64,000 bases of DNA, taken from the NCBI GenBank assembly GCA_949156565.1, contig CASCZI010000004.1, positions 65,110 through 129,109 on the forward strand. The letters run 5' to 3'. Under the pieces are notes generated by a model. It saw only the letters and a program-made list of their open reading frames with translations, was not told the origin of the DNA and did no database searches. This document shows, piece by piece, positions 6,393-45,261 of this stretch; the stretch's first letter is position 1; each line of letters starts with the position of its first letter. A program made the translations under genes and the position numbers. The stretch is from an uncultured Alphaproteobacteria bacterium. Its GTDB lineage: Bacteria; Pseudomonadota; Alphaproteobacteria; Rs-D84.

Positions 6393-8303
6393 ATGGGAAA
6401 AGTATTGGGTATTGATTTGGGAACGACGAATTCCGCCATGGCATTTATGGATGGATCTGATCCCAAAATTATTGAAAATGCCGAAGGTCAACGGACAACC
6501 CCATCGGTTGTTGCCTTTACGCCGTCGGGTGAACAATTGGTTGGGATCACCGCCAAAAACCAGGCCGTTACAAATCCGGAAAACACAATTTATGAAATTA
6601 AACGTTTGATGGGATTGCGCTATGACAGTCCGGCGATCAAAGAAATTGCCGCCCGCGTGCCCTATAAAATTGTGGCCGGCGACAATGGTGACGCATGGGT
6701 TGAAATCGAAGGCAAGAAATATGCCCCATCCCAGATTTCGGCCATGATTTTATCGAAACTGAAAAAAGATGCGGAAAATTATCTTGGCGAACCGGTCACA
6801 GATGCGGTGATTACAGTGCCGGCATACTTTAATGATTCCCAACGCCAGGCAACCAAAGACGCCGGCCGGATTGCGGGATTAAACGTGTTGCGTATTGTCA
6901 ACGAACCGACGGCGGCCGCATTGGCATATGGTCTGGAAAAAGATAAAAATGGTATTATCGCCGTGTATGATTTGGGGGGTGGGACATTTGACGTATCCAT
7001 TCTGGAAATCGTTGATGGTGTGTTCGAAGTAAAATCGACCAATGGCGATACGGCATTGGGGGGATCGGATTTTGATGCACGTATTTTGAAATACTTGATT
7101 GATGAATTCAAGGCCCAATCAGGGATCGATCTGTCGAATGATAAATTGGCCCTGCAACGGTTAAAAGAAGCGGCAGAAAAAGCCAAAATTGAATTGTCAT
7201 CAAAAATGTCGGCGGACATCAACTTGCCGTTCTTGACGGCAGATGCGACGGGTCCGAAACACTTTAACGTGACGTTAACCCGTGCAAAGCTGGAAGACCT
7301 GGTGGATGATCTGATTAAAAAGACAATTGAACCGTGCAAAAAAGCATTGGCCGACGCCAGTATTGATAAATCGCAGATTAACGAAGTTATTTTGGTCGGT
7401 GGTCAAACCCGTATGCCCAAAGTTGCCGAAACCGTCAAAGAATTTTTCGGCCGTGATCCGCACAAGGGTGTGAACCCGGACGAAGTTGTGGCCGATGGTG
7501 CCGCGATTCAAGGTGGTGTATTAAAGGGCGATGTTAAGGATGTTTTATTGTTGGATGTGACGCCGTTATCATTGGGAATTGAAACATTGGGTGGGGTGTT
7601 TACACGTCTGATTGATCGTAATACGACCATCCCGACGAAAAAGTCCCAAGTTTTCTCGACCGCCGAAGATAACCAATCGGCTGTGACCATTCGCGTGTTC
7701 CAGGGTGAACGTGACATGGCGGCCGATAACAAATTGTTGGGTCAATTTAACCTAGAAGGTATTGCCCCTGCGCCGCGCGGCATGCCCCAGATCGAAGTAT
7801 CATTTGATATCGATGCAAACGGTATTGTTCACGTGTCGGCCAAGGATAAAGGCACCGGCAAAGAACAAACTATTTCAATTAAATCCGACGGCGGTTTAAG
7901 TGAAGAAGACATTAAAAAGATGGTGGACGAAGCGGCCGCCAACGCCGAAGCAGATAAGAAAAAGCGTGCCTTGGCCGAAGCCAAGAATAACGCCGAAGCG
8001 GCGGTTTTCGGGATCGAAAAGTCATTAAAAGAACATGGCGACAAGATCAGCGAAGACGAGAAAAAGGCCATCGAAGATGCCAAGAAAGAATTGGCGGATG
8101 AATTGGCCAAGGCGGATGCAACAGCGGAAAGTCTGAAAACAAAGACAGACGCATTGACCGAAAAGGCCATGAAGTTGGGCGAAGCGGTATACAAAGCCGC
8201 CCAGGCCGAACAAGCCGCAGGCGCGGCAAGTGCCGACACCAGTGCGGGTGATGAAAAACCCGGCGACGGAACGGTTGACGCCGACTTTTCAGAAAAGAAG
8301 TAA
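6393..8303 (+). CDS. dnaK: molecular chaperone DnaK (Hsp70)
   Basis: Has the IDLGTTNS and DLGGGTFD signatures, a complete substrate-binding domain and a C-terminus [13 protein letters not shown]. No dnaJ follows. Confidence 0.9.
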
Positions 8304-12359: not shown

Positions 12360-12977
12360 TTATTTCAAATTTTTAATCAGTTTCATCAGGTATTCGTACA
12401 ATTTATCGGCGGCGGACGAAACGGCGTCATCCCAATCGTCCCCGCCCGCGGCATCCAATCCGTCGGTGATGTATTTGACCGCGATAAAGGGGACGTTTTC
12501 CATTGTGCATACGCGCGCCAGGGCATAGGCCTCCATCTCTACCACGTCGATGGGGGCGCGTACGGATTGTGTGGTGACGAAACTGTCGCCACTGCCGCAG
12601 ATGCCGTCGGGCAAATCGGTGACATACCGGGCATGTTCCAAAATGGCGCCGCATGTGTCGCCCGGCGTTGTACCGTGTTCGTATCCGATCATGGTGCAAT
12701 CCATGTCCCGTTGAATAAACCGGTGACAGGCAACCAGTGAATGCCTGGGGTGGTGACGGCTGCCCGCGCTGCCCAGATTAATGACATATTTCGGCATTTT
12801 GCCGGCGTGTCTTAGATCGGCCAGACGCCGCGTCAGGGCATAGGTGGCGTTGACTTTGCCCACGCCCGTCAGCAACAGGTTCGGCAATTGTCTCAGATCG
12901 TCGTTCAGTTCGTCGGGATGGGCGACGACAACCAAAACGTCATCTGTGGTGATGGGATTGCGTTGGGTATGGGACAT
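12360..12977 (-). CDS. mtnN: 5'-methylthioadenosine/S-adenosylhomocysteine nucleosidase (PNP/UDP phosphorylase family)
   Basis: PNP_UDP_1-type fold motifs are present: VVVAHPDEL...GVGKVNA...EMEAYALARVC. Confidence 0.7.
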   Translation of the reverse strand: MSHTQRNPITTDDVLVVVAHPDELNDDLRQLPNLLLTGVGKVNATYALTRRLADLRHAGKMPKYVINLGSAGSRHHPRHSLVACHRFIQRDMDCTMIGYEHGTTPGDTCGAILEHARYVTDLPDGICGSGDSFVTTQSVRAPIDVVEMEAYALARVCTMENVPFIAVKYITDGLDAAGGDDWDDAVSSAADKLYEYLMKLIKNLK

Positions 12978-13147
12978 GGTAAGACCTTAATTTTTTAAAG
13001 CTTGAACTTTTCTTTTAAGCATTTTGTATTTTTTAACTGTATCAGGAAATGGAAAATCATCACGCATTTATTCAATCCATAAATGTCTTTTGGCAAAGGA
13101 ATTGTTATCTCAAATGCTTCTTGGTAAATTCACGCCCCGCACCGGAT

Positions 13148-13363
13148 TTAAGATTTTTCGAAATGGGCCGCTTTTTCTTTACTGGCCAGGGCGAAATAAG
13201 ACAAAACTTTCCATGGAACGAATTTGGATGTATGGGGAACATGGCCGGCATTATGATATTTTAGTCGTTCTTTTAAATTTGATGTCATGCCTGTGTAATA
13301 CTGATCGGGATAAGATATACTCTGCAAAATATAGACATAATGCATATTTTTGCCATCCTGCAT
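13148..13363 (-). CDS. GIY-YIG nuclease-family small protein
   Basis: The motifs YVYILQS...YYTGMTSNLKERLKYHNAG...HTSKFVPWKV form a GIY-YIG core. It lies immediately 3' of tRNA-Gly on the same strand, and the longer 122-aa ORF in the track reads through the tRNA. Confidence 0.7.
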   Translation of the reverse strand: MQDGKNMHYVYILQSISYPDQYYTGMTSNLKERLKYHNAGHVPHTSKFVPWKVLSYFALASKEKAAHFEKS

Positions 13364-13436
13364 TTCATTCCGGCGGGCAGCCCGTTCGGCACGCTCATTC
13401 GGCTTGCCAGCCGGAGTTCGCTTGCGAACATAGGCT

Positions 13437-13509
13437 GGTGCGGGCGAAGGGAATCGAACCCTCGTCTTCAGCTTGGGAAGCTGACGTGCTACCATTATAC
13501 CACGCCCGC
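13437..13509 (-). tRNA. tRNA-Gly (anticodon CCC)
   Basis: The reverse complement folds as a cloverleaf with acceptor GCGGGCG/CGCCCGC, anticodon loop TTCCCAA, T-loop TTCGATT and an encoded CCA. Confidence 0.85.
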
Positions 13510-13640
13510 ATGTCAAACCAATGATGGGGTGATTCTATACCATGTCGACGCAAATGTCCAGTACAAAAATTTATCGTTGCAATTTCGTTTTTTCGGCTAT
13601 AAATTTATAAATGCTTTATGCAGACAGGAGAAAAATAAAA

Positions 13641-14894
13641 ATGAGCAATGAAAATTTAAATCCGTTAACCGCGGCCCAACAACGTGTAAAGAGTGCGTGT
13701 GACACATTGGGGTTGTCGGCGTCGGTATATGAAATTTTAAAAAATCCAATGCGGACGTTCGAGGTTCAAATTCCAGTAAAAATGGACGATGGATCCATTC
13801 GTGTCTTTACCGGATATCGGGCCCAACACAACACCGCCATTGGTCCGTCCAAGGGGGGCGTGCGTTTCCATCCCATGGTAACCAAAGACGAAGTGGCCGC
13901 ATTGTCTATATGGATGACATTTAAATGTGCGGTCACGGGTATTCCCTATGGCGGGGGCAAAGGGGGGATTATCGTTGATCCCAAAGAATTATCGGCGGGC
14001 GAACTGGAACGGTTGTGCCGCGGATATGTCGATGCGATTTATCCGATTTTGGGCGAAAAGCGGGACGTCCCTGCCCCCGACGTTAACACCAACAGTCAAA
14101 TTATGTCATGGATGATCGATGAATACATCAAGTTGTCGGGCGAAGAATCCTTTGGTACGTTCACCGGTAAACCGGTTGAATTGAACGGATCACGTGGTCG
14201 TACGCGTGCGACGGGACTGGGGATTTCTATTGTCATCGCCCAGGCGTTGGAAAAAATGGGCAAAGACATGCGTGGTGCCACCATTGCCATCCAAGGATTT
14301 GGAAACGTCGGATCCTTTACCGCGAAATGTTCACACGACATGGGGGCGAAAATTGTTGCGATTGCCGAATGGAACACAACACTTTATAACGAAAACGGCA
14401 TTGATATTGATGCGTTAATGGCGTACAAGGCCGAAAACAAAGGCAGTATCAAGGATTTCCCGGGTGCGACCGAAATTGATATAAATACGTTTTGGGGATT
14501 GAATGTGGATGTGTTGTCGCCGTGTGCGATGGAAAACACCATTAATGCCGAAACCGCCCCGTTGATCAAAACCAACCTGGTTGTCGAAGGCGCAAACGGT
14601 CCAACCACGATTGACGGTGAGAAAATCTTGTTGGATGCCGGTGTGACCGTTGTTCCCGATATCTTGGCAAACGCCGGTGGGGTGACGGTGTCGTACTTTG
14701 AATGGGTACAAAACCGTTATGGCTATTATTGGGGCGAGGCAGAGGTCGAAGAAAAAGAACAAATCGCGATGAAAGATGCCTTTGATGCGATTTATAAGAT
14801 CAAAACCGAATACAACGTTTCCATGCGCGAAGCGGCGTATATGCATTCGATCAAACGGGTGGCCGCGGCCATGAAATGGCGTGGTTGGTATTAA
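13641..14894 (+). CDS. gdhA: NAD(P)-specific glutamate dehydrogenase
   Basis: Glu/Leu/Phe/Val dehydrogenase signatures KGGVRFHP and GIPYGGGKGG, plus a Rossmann GFGNVG motif. An SD (aggag) precedes the ATG at 13641. Confidence 0.9.
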   Translation: MSNENLNPLTAAQQRVKSACDTLGLSASVYEILKNPMRTFEVQIPVKMDDGSIRVFTGYRAQHNTAIGPSKGGVRFHPMVTKDEVAALSIWMTFKCAVTGIPYGGGKGGIIVDPKELSAGELERLCRGYVDAIYPILGEKRDVPAPDVNTNSQIMSWMIDEYIKLSGEESFGTFTGKPVELNGSRGRTRATGLGISIVIAQALEKMGKDMRGATIAIQGFGNVGSFTAKCSHDMGAKIVAIAEWNTTLYNENGIDIDALMAYKAENKGSIKDFPGATEIDINTFWGLNVDVLSPCAMENTINAETAPLIKTNLVVEGANGPTTIDGEKILLDAGVTVVPDILANAGGVTVSYFEWVQNRYGYYWGEAEVEEKEQIAMKDAFDAIYKIKTEYNVSMREAAYMHSIKRVAAAMKWRGWY

Positions 14895-38650: not shown

Positions 38651-39130
38651 TTATTTTATGTCCAGATACAGAAAATGTTCGTCCCAATCGGAAAACCGGC
38701 GTGCCCCCATTCGCTGATAAAGTGTACATGCCCGTAGGTTCTTGCCCCAAACCGACCACCGAATTTCGGGGATTCCATTCGATCGTGCATAATCGCGTAA
38801 TGCACGGAAAATCATCAGGCCTGCGCCGCGATATTCTGGCCGGACATAGGCACCGCCAACCCAATAGTAACGATATGGGGGAATGTCAAAGGCATATCCG
38901 CGGCAAAACATCACCCATCCAATGACCGTCCCGTCTATGACCGCGACCATCATTTTGGCAAAGGCATCGGGACCAAATAAGATGTCGCGCAATTCCCGCC
39001 GGCGCGATTCACGGTCAATTTCGTATTGGGGTGCCCCCAGATCCTAGAAATAATGTTCAAATTCGGCGACCAAATCCCCCAGGGAATTTAAATCAGATTC
39101 AACCGCAAAACGTATAGAAATATCAGACAT
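38651..39130 (-). pseudogene. GNAT-family N-acetyltransferase interrupted by an in-frame TAG at codon 29
   Basis: The N-terminal 28 codons MSDISIRFAVESDLNSLGDLVAEFEHYF are followed by TAG (plus 39045-39047). The same frame then continues through GNAT motifs (RGAGLMIF). Confidence 0.6.
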
Positions 39131-39150
39131 AGAATCCATCCAGATATAAA

Positions 39151-39180
39151 AAATGGCGGAGCGTACAGGACTGGACTCCC
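39151..39180 (-). other. degenerate tRNA-Ser 3'-end remnant (att-like)
   Basis: The minus strand reads gagtccagtcctgtacgctccgcca, compared with the intact tRNA-Ser 3' end gagtcctatacgctccgcca. Confidence 0.4.
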
Positions 39181-39439
39181 CTTCCGCGCGCTACGCTTGC
39201 GGTGGGGATACCCCTCTCCACTCGCAACGATTTGGCGGCACTCTGTTTGCCAAATCTGCTCCGTATCGAACCTATGGACCGAAAAATTCCGGTAACAGAT
39301 TAGCAATTCTAGTCTCCGTTTGTTTTCATCAATATTTTACAACACCCGACAACAAAAAGCAACAGTTTTCTGCGGGTTTGATAAAATATGCTTTTGTCGC
39401 GGCTTTTGGCCCATTGCGCTCCATTTCGCACACCACTGT

Positions 39440-39530
39440 ACCAAAACTGTACCACGCCCACCCCCGGGCGGGGGGGCACCCCATCCATGGGTTTCACAGA
39501 ACCCAATTCGAACTTTTTTTGAAATTTTGA
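39440..39530. repeat. copy of a dispersed intergenic repeat (ccatgg...gaactt block with a GC hairpin)
   Basis: ccacccccgggcggggggg plus ccatgggtttcacagaacccaattcgaacttttt resembles the blocks at 55.98 kb and 58.67 kb. Confidence 0.35.
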
Positions 39531-39588
39531 ATTGCGTTTTTTTGCTTCTCAATTGTATATATAAACCGTTTCAGTAAAGTTATGCATT

Positions 39589-40158
39589 TCATTTTGTTTT
39601 TGAGCCAATAAGTGAAGATGTATCTTTTATAATTCTTGATAGCGCGTCGTTATCTATTTTTGCATTAATTTTTTCTCCAGTTCCTGCAATATAAATCGTT
39701 TTAAGTTTTTTAATATTTTTATAATTTTCTATGTCGCTAACAATTTCTGCCAAGAAATTTTCGTATGAAATCAAAATAATTGATCGGGTTTCTCCTTGAT
39801 TTAAAGTTATTGGATTTTTATATAAATCCGTATCATACGGTAGTATCAGCAGTCTAGTTTTGTCTTTACGTTTAAAGTCAAAATAAAAACTAGTACTTTG
39901 TAAAATTAACGGACGGCTACCTTTGTTTTTGATACATAGTGTAACGAGCTCATTTCCCATCAATCGTTCAGATTTAACAAGATATGATTTATCGCCCCCT
40001 ATTAATTTCATAATGGAAACACTTGCTACAGCTTTTAGTCTATTTTGCCTTGTCGAAACAAATAAAGAAACTATTACAGCGCTGCAAGTGCCTATTGCAA
40101 CTAGAAGCTGGATAATGAGTTCTATAAAATCTTTATACGATATAATGAAGTTATACAT
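39589..40158 (-). CDS. hypothetical protein (low-GC island)
   Basis: A 189-aa AT-rich ORF with an N-terminal TM helix. Confidence 0.4.
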   Translation of the reverse strand: MYNFIISYKDFIELIIQLLVAIGTCSAVIVSLFVSTRQNRLKAVASVSIMKLIGGDKSYLVKSERLMGNELVTLCIKNKGSRPLILQSTSFYFDFKRKDKTRLLILPYDTDLYKNPITLNQGETRSIILISYENFLAEIVSDIENYKNIKKLKTIYIAGTGEKINAKIDNDALSRIIKDTSSLIGSKTK

Positions 40159-40319
40159 AATGCCCTTCTATATAATTAAACTGTATTATAGTTTGTTGCA
40201 TATGGGTTTCAATGATAAAATTGCTTGCAATAGTTATTCAGATAATGTATAATCATTTCCGTATTTGGCGTAGCGAGCCATAGGCGAACGATAGCAAGTT
40301 TGCTAAAAATTCCCCTTAA

Positions 40320-40409
40320 AATCGTTATTCGGAGCGTTGCCAGAGTGGTAATGGAGCGGATTGCTAATCCGTCATGGGGTTAAACTCATGCATAGGTTCG
40401 AGTCCTATA
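40320..40409 (+). tRNA. tRNA-Ser (anticodon GCT), type II with a long variable arm
   Basis: Acceptor GGAGCGT/ACGCTCC, anticodon loop TTGCTAA, T-loop TTCGAGT and an encoded CCA. Confidence 0.9.
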
Positions 40410-40417
40410 CGCTCCGC

Positions 40418-40441
40418 CAGATTTTAAAAAGCCCTTGTTTG
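40418..40441. terminator. bidirectional terminator after tRNA-Ser
   Basis: The sequence aaaagcccttgtttgggcttttttat. Confidence 0.6.
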
Positions 40442-40448
40442 GGCTTTT

Positions 40449-40979
40449 TTATATTGAATAAAGCAGTTCTGGAATAACGCCAGTCATCAGTATTGTCCCC
40501 CAACATTTAAGCCAACCAATAACAAAATATTGTGTGCCACTTTGAGCTAAACCAGATCTAGTAAAATATAGTTTAATGGCTTCGGGTTGAAGTCGACCAC
40601 GAAAAAATATACATTTATTCGGATTGGCATCAAATTGTGTTGTCCCACTCCAACGCGTTAATTTTGTACCAGAGATTTCTTTTGCACCAAGATATATAAA
40701 TAATCCAAAAAGTAATGTGGCAATTTTGTATGTATGTTGGCCAAAGAAAACAAAGCCCAGAGCAATAAATGTTATAATTGCCAAATTAGATGTGATGCGA
40801 TCCAAATATTGGATTTTTGATCGTGCGGCATTATCTCTGGCAAGATAGAATCTTTTAAATAAAAGAAGCATAACAAACAGGACTGAGGACAAAAGACCAA
40901 TTATAAATAAAGCTGTTTTCATTAGAAAATCCTTTTTTGAATATATACTTATTTTTATTTGCTTTTCAAGAAACGTCAT
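40449..40979 (-). CDS. hypothetical multi-pass membrane protein (low-GC island)
   Basis: Four or five hydrophobic helices in an AT-rich ORF. Confidence 0.45.
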   Translation of the reverse strand: MTFLEKQIKISIYSKKDFLMKTALFIIGLLSSVLFVMLLLFKRFYLARDNAARSKIQYLDRITSNLAIITFIALGFVFFGQHTYKIATLLFGLFIYLGAKEISGTKLTRWSGTTQFDANPNKCIFFRGRLQPEAIKLYFTRSGLAQSGTQYFVIGWLKCWGTILMTGVIPELLYSI

Positions 40980-41200
40980 TGTAAAATAATTTTGAATCCA
41001 ATGGGAATTGGGTTCGGGGCTGTGGTAGCCCGTATATCCGGTACGTAGGTGTCGTAATCCAAAGATTCACACTTATTGTATCGTCAAAATATCCCCCGAC
41101 TTCGTGCCGGGGAGCTGTCAGTTATAAAATACGGCTTATCCGGAAGGCTGGCGGAATCAATGATATACTGATTACCAACTCCCCGACCGTCAAATTCTCG

Positions 41201-41527
41201 TTGACGGTCTTACTTTTTGCAAAGGTGAATTTAAAAAAAATGGACATATTGGCGATTGTAATAGTTATAGTTGCATATTTTTTAGAGTCGGCTTTTTGGA
41301 TGGGGATTTTATGCTTTGTTCTAATTCTTGCTCTTGGATATGTTTTAGAAAACCGAAAGTGCGGCGACGAGTACGATGAGTGTAATTTGTCAAAAAAATG
41401 GCAACGGAACATACTGTGTGTCATATTAATAATCGGCGTGTGTATCTCGAGTTTTATTGCCTCTCATAACGCAAAAAAGAATCGTATTGCGGAAATTAAA
41501 GAAGTCTGTTCCATGGTTAAATATTAA
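41201..41527 (+). CDS. hypothetical small membrane protein
   Basis: Two TM helices in an AT-rich ORF. Confidence 0.35.
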   Translation: MTVLLFAKVNLKKMDILAIVIVIVAYFLESAFWMGILCFVLILALGYVLENRKCGDEYDECNLSKKWQRNILCVILIIGVCISSFIASHNAKKNRIAEIKEVCSMVKY

Positions 41528-41583
41528 AATAATGAAAGAAAAACTAAAAACACATGGTTCAGAAGAAACTATAGAATGATGAG

Positions 41584-42132
41584 GTGACGGACATGAAATG
41601 GATACAGAATATTTTTACAAAATATAACTATATGCCACCTGAATGGGAATTCGCATCGGGTGTTAAGACAACCGCAATAAACACGTATATTTTAACCATT
41701 TTATTGATTATAACCGCTGGCTGGGGAATAGGATTTGGTATTTTTTGTTGCATGTTGCTTATTGATTATATCGGTATATTAATTAATCGATACAGGTACG
41801 CAAAAATTGAAAATGAGTTTAAAAATTACATTATGTCAGGGTTAACACCTTGTTTGGTGTACGCAAAAAGTGACCCACTAGGTATAATGTATACACTTGT
41901 TGTTGATGATAAATTATCGACTGTTTTTGCTGACTTGGATGCAGAGCCAGCCTTTTGGCCCATTGTTATATTCCTGTCAGAACAGGTAAAAACAGATTTA
42001 AAGAAAAAGCATTGGGATACGCCAACAAAAGTTAATAAATTCTATAAAGATAAAATTGTTCGGCTGCCGTCTTGTAAGCCAACAGATAAAAATCTTGCTG
42101 TAATAAAGGCTGTTTTAAAATATCCGTCTTGA
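41584..42132 (+). CDS. hypothetical membrane protein
   Basis: Two N-terminal TM helices. The ORF overlaps the integrase fragment on the opposite strand. Confidence 0.35.
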   Translation: MTDMKWIQNIFTKYNYMPPEWEFASGVKTTAINTYILTILLIITAGWGIGFGIFCCMLLIDYIGILINRYRYAKIENEFKNYIMSGLTPCLVYAKSDPLGIMYTLVVDDKLSTVFADLDAEPAFWPIVIFLSEQVKTDLKKKHWDTPTKVNKFYKDKIVRLPSCKPTDKNLAVIKAVLKYPS

Positions 42133-42448
42133 TCGCGGTTAATGAATATTGACCGATTAAATCCCGCCATATCCCCAGTTGGACACGAATGTCCCGGCTC
42201 TTGTTTTGTTTCTTGGGCAATTCTTCGTTCAGATACCGGTCGATTAATTCGCCGACGGTACGGCGTTTGGATTCCATTTGCGGCAAATACTTACCGTCAC
42301 GCAGGGCGATTTCCGTACGCATGGCCCATTCGGCGGCCTTGGTCTTGGATTTAAACGTTGCAGACTGGGGCGGGAATCCGGTAATACGCACCAGGGCGCG
42401 GTATGATACCGTGCCATCCTTACCCATTCTTTTCTGGTACGTAGCCAT
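42032..42448 (-). pseudogene. tyrosine integrase, N-terminal arm-binding fragment only (truncated)
   Basis: MATYQKRMGKDGTVSYRALVRITGFPPQSATFKSKTKAAEWAMRTEIALRDG matches the N-terminus of P4-like integrases. The ORF stops after about 139 aa, so the catalytic domain is absent. Confidence 0.6.
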
Positions 42449-42723
42449 TGCTAACACCCCGTCTGTTTTTGGATCATCAGATAAATAATCTGTGTCCAAG
42501 GTCGATTTGTCGGTTGAATTTCTGCACTTTTGGGTGCGTTCAATTCGGTGTTGGTACAGTTTTTGTGCATCAACATAATATAATACCAATATCGACCATA
42601 GAATTTGGGGTGTTTAGTGGTATTTTTTTGTAAATTATGATGATTTTTGTACCATGGGTGTACCACGGCGTGCGCACACAATTGATAAAATATTGATTTT
42701 ATGAGGTTTTTAAAAAGAAAAAA

Positions 42724-42766
42724 GCAGATTAGCAATCTGCTGCATTACCACTCTGCCAACGCTCCG
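42724..42766 (-). other. 5' half of a diverged tRNA-Ser(GCU)-like gene (acceptor 5' strand, D-arm, anticodon arm)
   Basis: The minus strand reads CGGAGCGTTGGCAGAGTGGTAATGCAGCAGATTGCTAATCTGC then T6CT5. It has compensatory stem changes relative to the intact tRNA (cggat/atccg versus cagat/atctg). Confidence 0.5.
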
Positions 42767-42860
42767 TCGTGGGATTATTATATAGAATGCGATTGTTAAT
42801 TGCAAGTGGGATTTTATATTTCATTGACATCATCTGATTTTTATTTACTATATCCCGGCC

Positions 42861-43337
42861 ATGAACAGATTTTATAAGGTTATTTTTATTGGGGATATGC
42901 ATTCAGATTCACTGTTTGCATCAACGTTTGGCATCCATGGGCTAACCGATCTGAAACCTGGTCGGAAATTTATGGCCACCCATAAATATATATCCGTTGA
43001 CATTGAAAAATATGCCATACCATCGCCGGTACCATTAATTCATTTTTGTGATAACGCGGTGGATACTTTGTTGTGGCGCCAAATCTTTGGTCATGTTCGA
43101 TATGTATTTGAAATTCAACCCATTGGTCCCATCACATATGATATATGTAAAGACCACAATCGTTTACAACAATGTGGGGCGCCGGGGATCGAATTAAAGC
43201 AACTCGTCACCGAAAATGGCTTGATCAATCTGGCCAAAGCGGAAATAGCCGTCAACCCCGATAGGATCATTAATCAATATAAAAACCCGTTGATCCGACA
43301 ATGGTTGTGGCGGTTGTATCATGGGGCACGAAAATAA
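42861..43337 (+). CDS. hypothetical protein
   Basis: A 158-aa ORF with no motif recognised. Confidence 0.35.
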   Translation: MNRFYKVIFIGDMHSDSLFASTFGIHGLTDLKPGRKFMATHKYISVDIEKYAIPSPVPLIHFCDNAVDTLLWRQIFGHVRYVFEIQPIGPITYDICKDHNRLQQCGAPGIELKQLVTENGLINLAKAEIAVNPDRIINQYKNPLIRQWLWRLYHGARK

Positions 43338-43497
43338 CCCAAACCAATATAAATTAATAATTGTAATGCAATAACAGATACTGGATATTGCCCCCGGCCG
43401 AATTTGATCGTGCCATCGGCGCGGCAATATGCCGTTACCCCAATATAAACTTTTTGCGTTATATTTGTATGTTTCGGGAATGCATACGCATTAAAAA

Positions 43498-43522
43498 AAC
43501 CGCCCAAATGGGCGGCTTTTAT
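43498..43522. terminator. bidirectional terminator (accDA 3' end)
   Basis: The sequence aaaaaaccgcccaaatgggcggctttt. Confidence 0.6.
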
Positions 43523-45261
43523 TGTTCGGTTTTGTGTTCCGGACCATATATTTCAACGTCACGGGTCATGGCGATAAATTTATCACCACGGTGCGCCGGC
43601 AATTCATTACGGGGCGTTTTTTCAACGTCCGCGATGGCGTCGGCCACGGCCGATGCCAACAATTCCATGGTTGTTTGCCAATCGGTATGTGCACCACCGG
43701 CGGGTTCACTAATGATTTGATCAACCACATTCAAATCGGCCATATCCCGTGCGGTCAATTTCATGGCCGCGGCGGCATCTGCCTTGTACTTGTTATCACG
43801 CCAACGAATACTGGCACATGATTCTGGGGCAATGACCGAATAAATCGCGTTTTCAAGCATCAAAACCCGGTCCCCGGTTCCAATGGCGATGGCACCGCCG
43901 GATCCACCCTGGCCCACATTGACAGCGATATAGGGAGTCTTGATATCCAACCCCGTCGCAATGGATGCCGCAACGGCCTGGGACTGGCCACGTTCTTCGC
44001 CTTCGCGGCCGGCAAATGCCCCCGCCGTGTCAAACAATGAAATCAACGGTAATCCAAACTTCTCCGCCAGGCGCATCATGCGTTGGGCCTTGCGATAGCC
44101 ATCCGGATTGGCCATGCCAAAACGATGTTTTTGACGTGTTTCGATGGTTCGTCCCTGTTCTTGGCCAATGATGACAGCCGGGATACCACGCCAATATCCG
44201 ATTCCACTGCCCATGGCGGGATCTTCGGCATATAATCTGTCGCCGGCCAGGTATGTCCATTCGTCGACAATCCCATTGATGTAATCCAAGAAATGCGGCC
44301 GGTTTTCATGACGTGCCAACAATACCTTGTCATAGGCATCATTTTCGCCCATACCACGAATTTTCTTTGATGCGTCAAATTCCGGTGTCACCGCAGAAAT
44401 AGGCTTTGCGGCGCGCGGCTGTTTGGTTAATACATGCAAGATTTTTTCCAACGCCCCTTTTAATTCATTGCGTTCCACAACCATATCAACCATACCATGT
44501 TCATAAAGGTATTCCGCCGTCTGGAAATTCGATGGTAATTTTTCACGGATATTCTGTTCAATCACGCGACGACCGGCAAATCCAATACGGGCACCACGTT
44601 CTGCGATATGAATATCACCCAACATGGCAAATGATGCCGTTACCCCACCAAACGTCGGATCGGTCAGAATCACGATATACGGGATGCCATTGGCATGCAA
44701 TTTATTAACCGCAACCGTTGTACGTGCCATCTGCATCAGTGCCAGGATATTTTCCTGCATCCGCGCGCCACCACTGGACGTCACCATGATAAAGGGTCGT
44801 TTTTCTTCGATGGCGTGTTCCATACTGGCCACGATGGCATCGCCCACCGCACGCCCCATCGAACCCATCATAAATTCCCCGTTCAACACACAAACCGTTG
44901 ATGGTACGCCACCAATTGTTCCATCGGCGGTGGTAATGGCATCGTTGGTGCCGGTGTCATTTCGGGCATCGATCAATATTTCTTTGTATGATGCGCGATC
45001 CACAAAGTTTAATGGATCATCGGTAACCGTGGGCAATGTGATGCGTTCCCAGGCGCGGTCATCAAATAATAAATCAAATCGCTGTTTCGGGGTCATGATA
45101 AATGCCCGATTGCAATTGGGACAGATGTACAAATTATCTTTGTAATCACGGTAATAAACCAATTTCCCGCACGATTCACATTTTAACCACATTAACCGCC
45201 GCACGCGGTCATAACGTTCACGATTTTTATTTTTAATACCAGATTTTTTACCAAACAACAT
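43519..45261 (-). CDS. accD-accA: acetyl-CoA carboxylase carboxyltransferase, fused beta (AccD) and alpha (AccA) subunits
   Basis: The N-terminus has the AccD zinc-ribbon CESCGKLVYYRDYKDNLYICPNCN and the beta-subunit CT domain. The C-terminal half is AccA-like (LARHENRPHFLDY...FGMANPDGYRKAQRMMRLAEKFGLPLISLFDTAGA...VGQGGSGGAIA). The whole is a single 580-aa ORF. Confidence 0.85.
   Translation of the reverse strand: MLFGKKSGIKNKNRERYDRVRRLMWLKCESCGKLVYYRDYKDNLYICPNCNRAFIMTPKQRFDLLFDDRAWERITLPTVTDDPLNFVDRASYKEILIDARNDTGTNDAITTADGTIGGVPSTVCVLNGEFMMGSMGRAVGDAIVASMEHAIEEKRPFIMVTSSGGARMQENILALMQMARTTVAVNKLHANGIPYIVILTDPTFGGVTASFAMLGDIHIAERGARIGFAGRRVIEQNIREKLPSNFQTAEYLYEHGMVDMVVERNELKGALEKILHVLTKQPRAAKPISAVTPEFDASKKIRGMGENDAYDKVLLARHENRPHFLDYINGIVDEWTYLAGDRLYAEDPAMGSGIGYWRGIPAVIIGQEQGRTIETRQKHRFGMANPDGYRKAQRMMRLAEKFGLPLISLFDTAGAFAGREGEERGQSQAVAASIATGLDIKTPYIAVNVGQGGSGGAIAIGTGDRVLMLENAIYSVIAPESCASIRWRDNKYKADAAAAMKLTARDMADLNVVDQIISEPAGGAHTDWQTTMELLASAVADAIADVEKTPRNELPAHRGDKFIAMTRDVEIYGPEHKTEQ

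Follow-up and report, generated by a model that had tools for sequence, protein, structure and literature searches.

In a classical genomic island targeting a transfer RNA (tRNA) or transfer-messenger RNA (tmRNA) gene, the attachment site of the element (attP) carries the tRNA gene's 3' half and rebuilds the gene at integration (Islander, PMC4383910). A different arrangement, tRNA-dependent lysogeny, has been established experimentally as a two-feature mechanism in mycobacteriophages, where a phage with a 10-bp common core was contrasted with a relative having a 43-bp core, the systems being Fionnbharth/subcluster K4 and cluster L (Guerrero-Bustamante and Hatfull 2024, PMC10865867). The same mechanism has been noted for Lj965 of Lactobacillus johnsonii (PMC10865867), and prophages that inactivate and replace tRNA-Leu(UAG) of Sinorhizobium meliloti have been reported bioinformatically (PMC11476347). 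Here we analyzed a DNA stretch of 64,000 nt (hereafter the window) from an uncultured Alphaproteobacteria bacterium (Rs-D84; GCA_949156565.1, CASCZI010000004.1, positions 65,110-129,109), and found a region of 3.4 kb that is very probably a decayed small integrative element, which was inserted into the host tRNA-Ser(GCU) gene in a tRNA-dependent manner and brought its own replacement tRNA.

The host lineage of the window is Candidatus Enterousia, a gut alphaproteobacterium. For comparison we retrieved 80 loci with the fused AccD/AccA protein whose gene adjoins the site in the window, and collected further islands through integrase homologues in the protein database; the loci, designated L001 and so on, are at most 22 kb each. 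All 80 AccDA loci belong to uncultured gut alphaproteobacteria labelled Candidatus Enterousia, Rickettsiales or Alphaproteobacteria. In most of these relatives one tRNA-Ser(GCU) gene is located about 85 nt after accDA on the same strand, and cysS is found beyond it where the layout was examined. The preliminary description of this region had proposed looking for a single intact tRNA-Ser gene at syntenic loci, and this search gave an intact native tRNA-Ser(GCU) at the site in 41 related loci. The anticodon arm reads GCAGA/TCTGT in 41 native copies and GCGGA/TCCGT in about seven host lineages. In the window, the native gene is present as two separated parts, and the features that define the insertion are as follows.

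39308 to 42724: element of 3.4 kb, inserted in the anticodon loop of the native tRNA-Ser(GCU) gene and bounded by a 12-nt repeat
42725 to 42765, minus strand: 5' part of the native tRNA-Ser(GCU), positions 1-41, identical to the native tRNA of relatives at 41 of 41 nt
42725 to 42736: attL copy of the 12-nt common core, CAGATTAGCAAT on the plus strand and ATTGCTAATCTG on the tRNA strand, comprising the anticodon loop and flanking bases
39296 to 39307: attR copy of the 12-nt common core, an exact repeat of the attL copy
39266 to 39307, minus strand: 3' part of the native tRNA-Ser(GCU), positions 30-71, assigned by alignment to the tRNA
40331 to 40419, plus strand: intact island tRNA-Ser(GCU), the presumed functional replacement (ARAGORN; 57.7 bits with the Rfam tRNA model)
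42104 to 42448, minus strand: remnant of a tyrosine integrase, the N-terminal ~112-115 residues with the catalytic domain missing, assigned by similarity to the L001 integrase

The 5' part, read from 42765 to 42725, breaks off in the anticodon arm, where element DNA (a C and a T-run) takes the place of the variable arm; it is identical to the island tRNA at 36 of 39 nt and scores 23.4 bits (E = 0.2) with the Rfam tRNA model. The 3' part runs in the order of anticodon loop, 3' strand of the stem, well-formed variable arm and 5' strand of the T-stem with TTCGA, and ends on the 5' side of the T-loop. ARAGORN called no tRNA at either junction, and the 5' and 3' parts joined together with an added acceptor end (89 nt) were called tRNA-Ser(gct) by the same program. 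The two parts overlap by 12 nt and flank 39308-42724 as a direct repeat, as is characteristic of site-specific integration into the anticodon loop. Exactly two copies of the 12-mer CAGATTAGCAAT are present in the 64 kb (at 39296 and 42725), and it was contained in none of 100 dinucleotide-preserving shuffles.

These results agree with the preliminary description in most points. It had regarded the region as a degraded integrative island, in which an element carrying a replacement tRNA had interrupted an ancestral tRNA-Ser gene on the minus strand, and this idea gains support from the intact native locus of the relatives and from the recurrence of the split layout, with the boundaries corrected to 39308-42724 and the arrangement assigned to a known kind of integration, not a mere oddity. 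The 5' half that it placed at 42724-42766 is present at 42765-42725, the intact plus-strand tRNA-Ser(GCT) is the gene at 40331-40419, and the anticodon-arm-like string recurring at 39296 is the exact 12-mer that starts the true 3' part and constitutes the att core. Its other tRNA fragment, at 39151-39180, does match a tRNA 3' end at 20 of 22 nt, but the true 3' part of the split gene is located at 39307-39266, and the string belongs to the end of a conserved element, called X below. The compensatory stem substitutions that it saw between the fragments and the intact copy are also real, but the assignment of the diverged copy has to be reversed: because the 5' part is identical to the native gene of the relatives throughout its 41 nt, the fragments represent the native allele and the gene at 40331 is the diverged, foreign one.

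The same order, namely 5' part, integrase, island with its own tRNA-Ser(GCU) and 3' part, was found recurrently, in eight independent instances. Both tRNA parts are present in L023, L140, L141/L142 and L143; in L001, L138/L139 and L145/L146 the arrangement is incomplete, with the contig end reached. For example, L023 has a 5' part (7689-7729), a 365-aa integrase, an 8.8-kb island with an inverted intact tRNA-Ser(GCU), a 13-nt direct repeat and a 3' part covering positions 29-89 at 97% identity to the native tRNA, and cysS follows the 3' part in this locus and in L141. The closest relative, L001 (93% AccDA identity), has the window's arrangement together with a complete integrase, a DUF3631 protein and ~5.4 kb of DNA missing from the window. 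The islands of L140 and L141/L142 are 10.7 kb and 7.9 kb, and L143 has a 4.4-kb island at a different locus of a more distant host, with its tRNA in direct orientation; the known islands span 3.4-10.7 kb. A PF00589 integrase, predicted to be catalytic, adjoins attL in L001, L023 and L140-L145. Other recognized island genes encode DUF3631/DUF3987 proteins, Shedu, peptidase-like and outer membrane protein (OMP)-like products and a KAP NTPase, and there was no match to virion or terminase genes in Pfam, PHROGs or precomputed annotations. As to individual cargo, the KAP NTPase is found in the L140 island, and the anti-phage defence gene Shedu (SduA) is located beside the island tRNA-Ser of L023 (14944-16323; PADLOC E = 5e-87).

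All six islands for which the interior is available (window, L001, L023, L140, L141/L142 and L143) contain an intact tRNA-Ser(GCU), and that of L001 is identical to that of the window. The window's island tRNA departs from the native tRNA in the D stem (C10:G25 vs native G10:C25), in the anticodon stem (G29:C41 vs native A29:U41) and in the whole variable arm. The island tRNAs form a lineage of their own, and the substitutions in the stem of their variable arm are compensatory, as expected of functional genes. Signals that may serve the expression of the two tRNA genes were assigned as follows.

40225 to 40253, plus strand: promoter-like site TTGCAA-17-TATAAT upstream of the island tRNA (consensus scan, a pattern match only)
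42777 to 42805, minus strand: promoter-like site TTGCAA-17-TATAAT of the split native tRNA-Ser(GCU) (consensus scan, a pattern match only)
42723 to 42741, minus strand: terminator-like hairpin formed by the anticodon arm and the element T-run at attL (terminator scan; putative function)

The TATAAT context is alike just upstream of the intact native tRNA in relatives, and a hairpin AAAGCCC-TTGTTT-GGGCTTT with a T-run, read from the sequence, stands directly 3' of the island tRNA.

We consider that tRNA-Ser(GCU) is probably a single-copy and essential gene in this host and that the island tRNA would decode its AGY codons, because the genome is small (0.75-1.0 Mb in Enterousia; PMC12306168), each empty locus has one copy, and the island always keeps the same isoacceptor. 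It can be argued instead that the insertion is real and the island tRNA is ordinary cargo, with another tRNA-Ser(GCU) in the genome decoding AGY codons and thus neither dependence nor replacement. The visible part of the genome is indeed 64 kb, in which ARAGORN found three tRNA genes, one of them tRNA-Ser(GCU), and there are other reasons for which tRNA genes are frequent on phages and islands (PMC10865867). This explanation appears unlikely to us, because the island tRNA is the isoacceptor of the destroyed gene in six of six islands at two different loci, because it is intact with compensatory changes and has been retained even in the heavily decayed window copy, and because, in these small genomes, two intact tRNA-Ser(GCU) copies share a related locus only where an island is present. 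We also considered whether the G29:C41 stem of the island tRNA (core ...TCCG, not ...TCTG) could protect it from its own integrase, and abandoned this idea: this allele is the native one of about seven host lineages, and elements have integrated into such hosts (L140, L145 and L052).

The length of the common core separates this group from classical islands. Core lengths of 12 nt (window), 13 nt (L023) and 10 nt (L140 and L143) were found, and the core is continued by a T-run in the Enterousia copies (conserved in L001, L023, L138, L140, L141 and L145) and by unrelated element DNA in L143, not by the tRNA 3' half. In hosts with the G29:C41 allele (L140 and L145), attL combines the GCGGA stem of the host with TCTGC of the element, which locates the crossover within the 7-nt anticodon loop or next to it. 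The integrases of the Enterousia clade are at least 51% identical. More distant integrase relatives (33-46% identity, 55 metagenome loci) are located 100-400 nt downstream of intact genes for tRNAs with many different specificities, and where the far end is contained in the locus, the direct repeat starts at tRNA position 30 and extends as far as the 3' end, with lengths of 47 nt (L100) and 45 nt (L112); these two loci represent the classical reconstituting mode. Among distant integrase loci without an ARAGORN tRNA, a search for more tRNA-splitting relatives gave no partial tRNA matches, most contigs starting too near the integrase gene to be informative, and viral contigs scanned with the integrase alignment gave only two remote matches (24-27% identity). 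Williams reportedly distinguished, in 2002, an anticodon-loop sublocation class of tRNA-targeting islands. The present elements resemble classical tRNA/tmRNA islands in that the integrase adjoins the tRNA in the same orientation, the crossover is in the anticodon loop, and a displaced fragment starting from position ~30 is found at the far end (PMC4383910). The difference is that the target gene is restored in classical islands but not here, where the repeat is 10-13 nt instead of position 30 to the 3' end; the window has a displaced fragment (positions 30-71) with the target unrestored at attL, which is outside the classical definition (PMC4383910), and L100 and L112 are within it.

One could still suppose that a classical island first rebuilt the tRNA at attL, and that the rebuilt gene was subsequently displaced or turned around by an inversion or deletion within the island, the 5' stub being left behind. 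The distant integrase relatives do rebuild their target tRNA, and the tRNA-Ser cassette is prone to inversion in this genus. We regard this history as very improbable, however, because the attL junction, in which the core is directly followed by TTTTT..TAAAAA, is given as conserved in the eight instances with integrases 51-100% identical (unrelated element DNA follows the core in L143), and such conservation points to a property of attP rather than to independent later accidents. In addition, the island tRNAs are unlike the host tRNA along the whole of the D stem, anticodon stem and variable arm, and the position and orientation of the island tRNA vary (direct in L143).

The native layout, the insertion, the short core, the absence of rebuilding, the island tRNA, the decay and the horizontal spread are established by sequence and comparison with relatives. 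The mechanism that we propose for tRNA-dependent integration at this locus is as follows. A tyrosine integrase would recombine the element into the anticodon loop of the host tRNA-Ser(GCU) across a common core of 10-13 bp. The attP of the Enterousia clade would keep just this core, with the same sublocation as in the classical relatives, and after insertion one junction would have positions 1-41 and the other would have position 30 to the 3' end, leaving the host gene broken. A complete tRNA-Ser(GCU) gene elsewhere on the element would substitute for the broken gene. In the window, decay of the integrase and erosion of the split halves would then lock the element in, and the foreign tRNA would stay for good.

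The likeness to tRNA-dependent lysogeny is extensive: in both cases a tyrosine integrase acts, or is predicted to act, on an attB overlapping a tRNA gene, the core is about 10 bp and the host tRNA is not rebuilt, while integrase relatives with a long core (43-47 bp) do rebuild it and putative arm-type sites flank the core (PMC10865867). An integrase with attB in a tRNA gene, a short core without tRNA rebuilding and an element-borne tRNA are all found at the present locus. The difference is in the carrier, which is a temperate phage in the published cases and here an island of 3.4-10.7 kb, or possibly a satellite, without recognizable virion genes; for this reason "lysogeny" is the wrong word, though the integration logic is the same. 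Here, moreover, the host is a gut alphaproteobacterium with a reduced genome, the target is tRNA-Ser(GCU), the window copy is immobilized, and the system is known from sequence alone, unlike the phages (PMC10865867). The Sinorhizobium prophages, whose host also belongs to Alphaproteobacteria, are similar in that insertion in the middle of the tRNA inactivates the gene and a diverged tRNA of the same isoacceptor replaces it (PMC11476347). They and Lj965 are prophages with other target tRNAs, in contrast to the present clade of small islands specific for tRNA-Ser(GCU).

Comparison of the window with L001 gives information on mobility. Identity is 99.3% in the integrase-proximal arm, 96.7% in the integrase stub DNA and 91% in the island tRNA block by global alignment (93.7% over 981 nt by BLAST), but 82% in accDA DNA and 63% in the host gene adjoining the tRNA. 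The island DNA is thus far more alike (97-99%) than the adjoining host DNA (63-82%, with 63-70% in the host flanks), which indicates that the element is much younger than the split of the hosts and has spread horizontally. In the window copy, the 5.4-kb core of L001 is replaced by unrelated AT-rich DNA of about 0.9 kb, in which there are two small open reading frames (ORFs), and a deletion of ~105 nt between two GGTTCGA motifs has removed the T-arm and acceptor end from the 3' tRNA part. Since the integrase is a stub, the replication/core module is gone and the 3' tRNA part is deleted, the element should no longer be able to leave, and excision could no longer rebuild the native gene; apparently, the foreign tRNA has in effect permanently replaced it.

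That the two tRNA parts are a chance resemblance, debris of a tRNA pseudogene or a product of mis-assembly, with no mobile element involved, is highly improbable: the source is probably a metagenome-assembled genome and duplication does yield tRNA-like fragments, but the 5' part is identical to the native tRNA at all 41 positions, none of the shuffles contained the 12-mer, the same junctions recur in eight or more independent assemblies of different origin, and the integrase and both element arms are homologous across assemblies. In Nanoarchaeum equitans, there are tRNA genes split at the anticodon region, the two halves being encoded separately. Although the break is at the anticodon region here too, and the 5' part has both a retained promoter-like site and a newly acquired terminator-like hairpin, a functional split gene of this type, with halves joined or assembled in trans, can practically be dismissed, because the halves overlap by the 12-nt att core that marks site-specific recombination, no complementary leader or trailer for joining is visible beside them, the 3' part lacks the T-arm and acceptor end, and an intact copy of the same tRNA is present.

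Several points weigh against tRNA-dependent integration as the explanation. The dependence of the host on the island tRNA is an inference, because only 64 kb of the genome are visible, and the expression of this tRNA is judged solely from consensus promoter and terminator matches. The attP sequence (...GGAGACTAGAATTGCTAATCTGCTTTTTTCTTT...) is a reconstruction from attL and attR, no circular or unintegrated form having been observed, and the related sequences are metagenome assemblies throughout. In addition, the simple model fails to explain L052, where an attR-type element end abuts a 3' tRNA part (positions 28-89) at 12693-14174 with no integrase, and a full host-type tRNA-Ser(GCU) is located 1.3 kb upstream in direct orientation; this locus looks like a classical arrangement or a recombination product.

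The remaining parts of the element are its two arms and its cargo.

42452 to 42724, minus strand: integrase-proximal arm, 99.3% identical to L001, with a homologous arm in L023
39308 to 39470, minus strand: attR-proximal arm, a conserved block CCGCAGAAAnCTGTTGCTTTTTGTTGT...TGTTGTAAAATAT aligned with the element ends of L023 and L052
41201 to 42132, plus strand: AT-rich cargo of this copy, ORF108 (41201-41527) and ORF182 (41584-42132), from the ORF list
40449 to 40979, minus strand: ORF176, adjoining the island tRNA, 98.9% identical to an island ORF of L001 and absent from other loci
39589 to 40158, minus strand: ORF189, hypothetical island cargo, from the ORF list

The preliminary description had listed an intact tRNA, a minus-strand N-terminal fragment of an integrase and otherwise only small membrane or hypothetical ORFs on this island, and these features are present. 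The integrase ORF occupies 42032-42451 on the minus strand, and its first ~112-115 residues are 95% identical to the 370-aa tyrosine integrase (PF00589) at the same position in L001; homology ends at ~42104-42115, and the last ~24 codons run into unrelated DNA. The stub alone was recognized by neither Pfam nor NCBIfam. ORF108 and ORF182 encode small predicted membrane or hypothetical proteins, stand in place of the ~5.4 kb found in L001, and lack homologues among the retrieved loci; searches of Pfam, NCBIfam, PHROGs and PADLOC gave nothing convincing for the window's four cargo ORFs. The whole of 39.5-42.8 kb had been described as AT-rich, which holds for ~39500-42000 (GC content of 0.29-0.40, compared with 0.44-0.55 in the flanks) but not for the island ends at 39308-39500 and 42130-42724.

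Repeated GTGGTACA/GTGGTGCA motifs are found in both element arms, which are homologous between instances; of these motifs, GTGGTACA has only two copies in the 64 kb, one close to either end of the island. In the integrase-proximal arm, candidate arm-type repeats TGTACCAnnnnTGTACCACG are found at 42648-42667 with an inverted copy at 42552-42569, and repeats TGTACCAAAACTGTACCACG are found in the attR-proximal arm at 39437-39456. We take the GTGGTACA/GTGGTGCA repeats as candidate arm-type sites, to which the integrase may bind.

Downstream of the split tRNA, the window has a part of another conserved unit.

39154 to 39265, minus strand: 5'-truncated element X, 78-83% identical to X in 15-16 loci

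Element X is a structured unit of ~140 nt, conserved downstream of the native tRNA and its terminator in 15-16 Enterousia loci (e.g., L079:11945-12089 and L006:11985-12129). Its hairpins comprise one with GGTTCGA and several rich in G+C, its final portion repeats the tRNA's last 19 nt (AGTCCTATACGCTCCGCCA) plus CCA, and a second terminator of its own follows; of the 38 predicted pairs, three covary. Of X, the window retains just ~110 nt from the 3' side, and the fusion with the split tRNA falls exactly on GGTTCGA; the deletion of ~105 nt took the start of X and the tRNA terminator in addition to the T-arm and acceptor end. A stretch of 94 nt in the T-loop could be taken for an intron or a second insertion, but the relatives show that it is the body of X, normally located downstream of the intact tRNA. 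No Rfam family was found for X apart from a weak RtT match (18.1 bits, E = 0.7; gathering threshold 45 bits), and we rejected tmRNA, signal recognition particle (SRP) RNA and other known RNAs on the same ground, the tmRNA being found elsewhere in the relatives. The rtT repeats downstream of E. coli tyrT (RF00391) are alike in being a structured unit directly after a tRNA gene and ending in the last ~19 nt of the tRNA, which is tRNA-Tyr in E. coli, but they form a tandem array while X is single-copy, and common descent is unsupported with a score far under the threshold.

The cassette consisting of promoter, tRNA-Ser(GCU) and X is cleanly inverted between species with collinear flanks (L075:12353-12703 vs L016:12345-12697; ~350 bp, 83% identity), and the orientation of the tRNA relative to accDA varies in about 17 of the 80 loci. 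We examined the view that inverted native tRNAs are footprints of past replacement and rejected it, because no 5' stubs or element arms were present at those loci and at least one case is a clean 350-bp inversion. A further copy of the tRNA 3' end between X and cysS, as the mark of a second island, was looked for and not found. As a tentative and rather doubtful extension, X may be an undescribed tRNA-linked structured RNA, within a promoter-tRNA-X cassette that has been repeatedly inverted, split and replaced, with islands driving permanent turnover of a presumably single-copy, essential tRNA gene and with the 5' half, terminated at the attL hairpin, perhaps forming a stable small RNA.

We also made several observations on the neighbouring genes. 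The GNAT acetyltransferase gene at 38651-39133 (minus strand) has an in-frame TAG after codon 28 (~39047) and is a pseudogene or a sequencing error. The block of GNAT, ORF306 and ORF152 between X and cysS is a further lineage-specific insertion, being absent from related loci save for one weak ORF152 match in L069. On the other side, the gene between accDA and the split tRNA, ORF158 (42861-43337, plus strand), belongs to the host and is outside the island; it evolves fast, has no family assignment, and has homologues in at least 11 relatives (27-50% identity). AccD and AccA, the carboxyltransferase subunits of acetyl-CoA carboxylase, are fused into a 580-aa protein (43519-45261, minus strand), and this fusion is found in 80 of 80 related loci. 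Between accDA and ORF158, at 43486-43557, a hairpin (GCCGCCCATTTGGGCGG) that has T-runs on either strand forms a strong bidirectional terminator, which gave spurious weak matches to Rfam leader peptides.

Experimental proof of tRNA-dependent integration has been given only in actinobacteriophages, in 2024, and the mode has been noted in a few prophages; the present locus and its relatives add a clade of small non-phage islands in uncultured gut alphaproteobacteria. Island-finding software that requires a regenerated tRNA and a displaced 3' fragment would miss such elements or misplace their boundaries. The window copy appears to illustrate the end point of the process, in which the integrase has decayed, the halves of the native gene have eroded, and a horizontally acquired tRNA has permanently replaced a native, presumably essential one. 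Integration of this kind may therefore be a route for the turnover of tRNA genes and, at the same time, for locking a mobile element into the genome.

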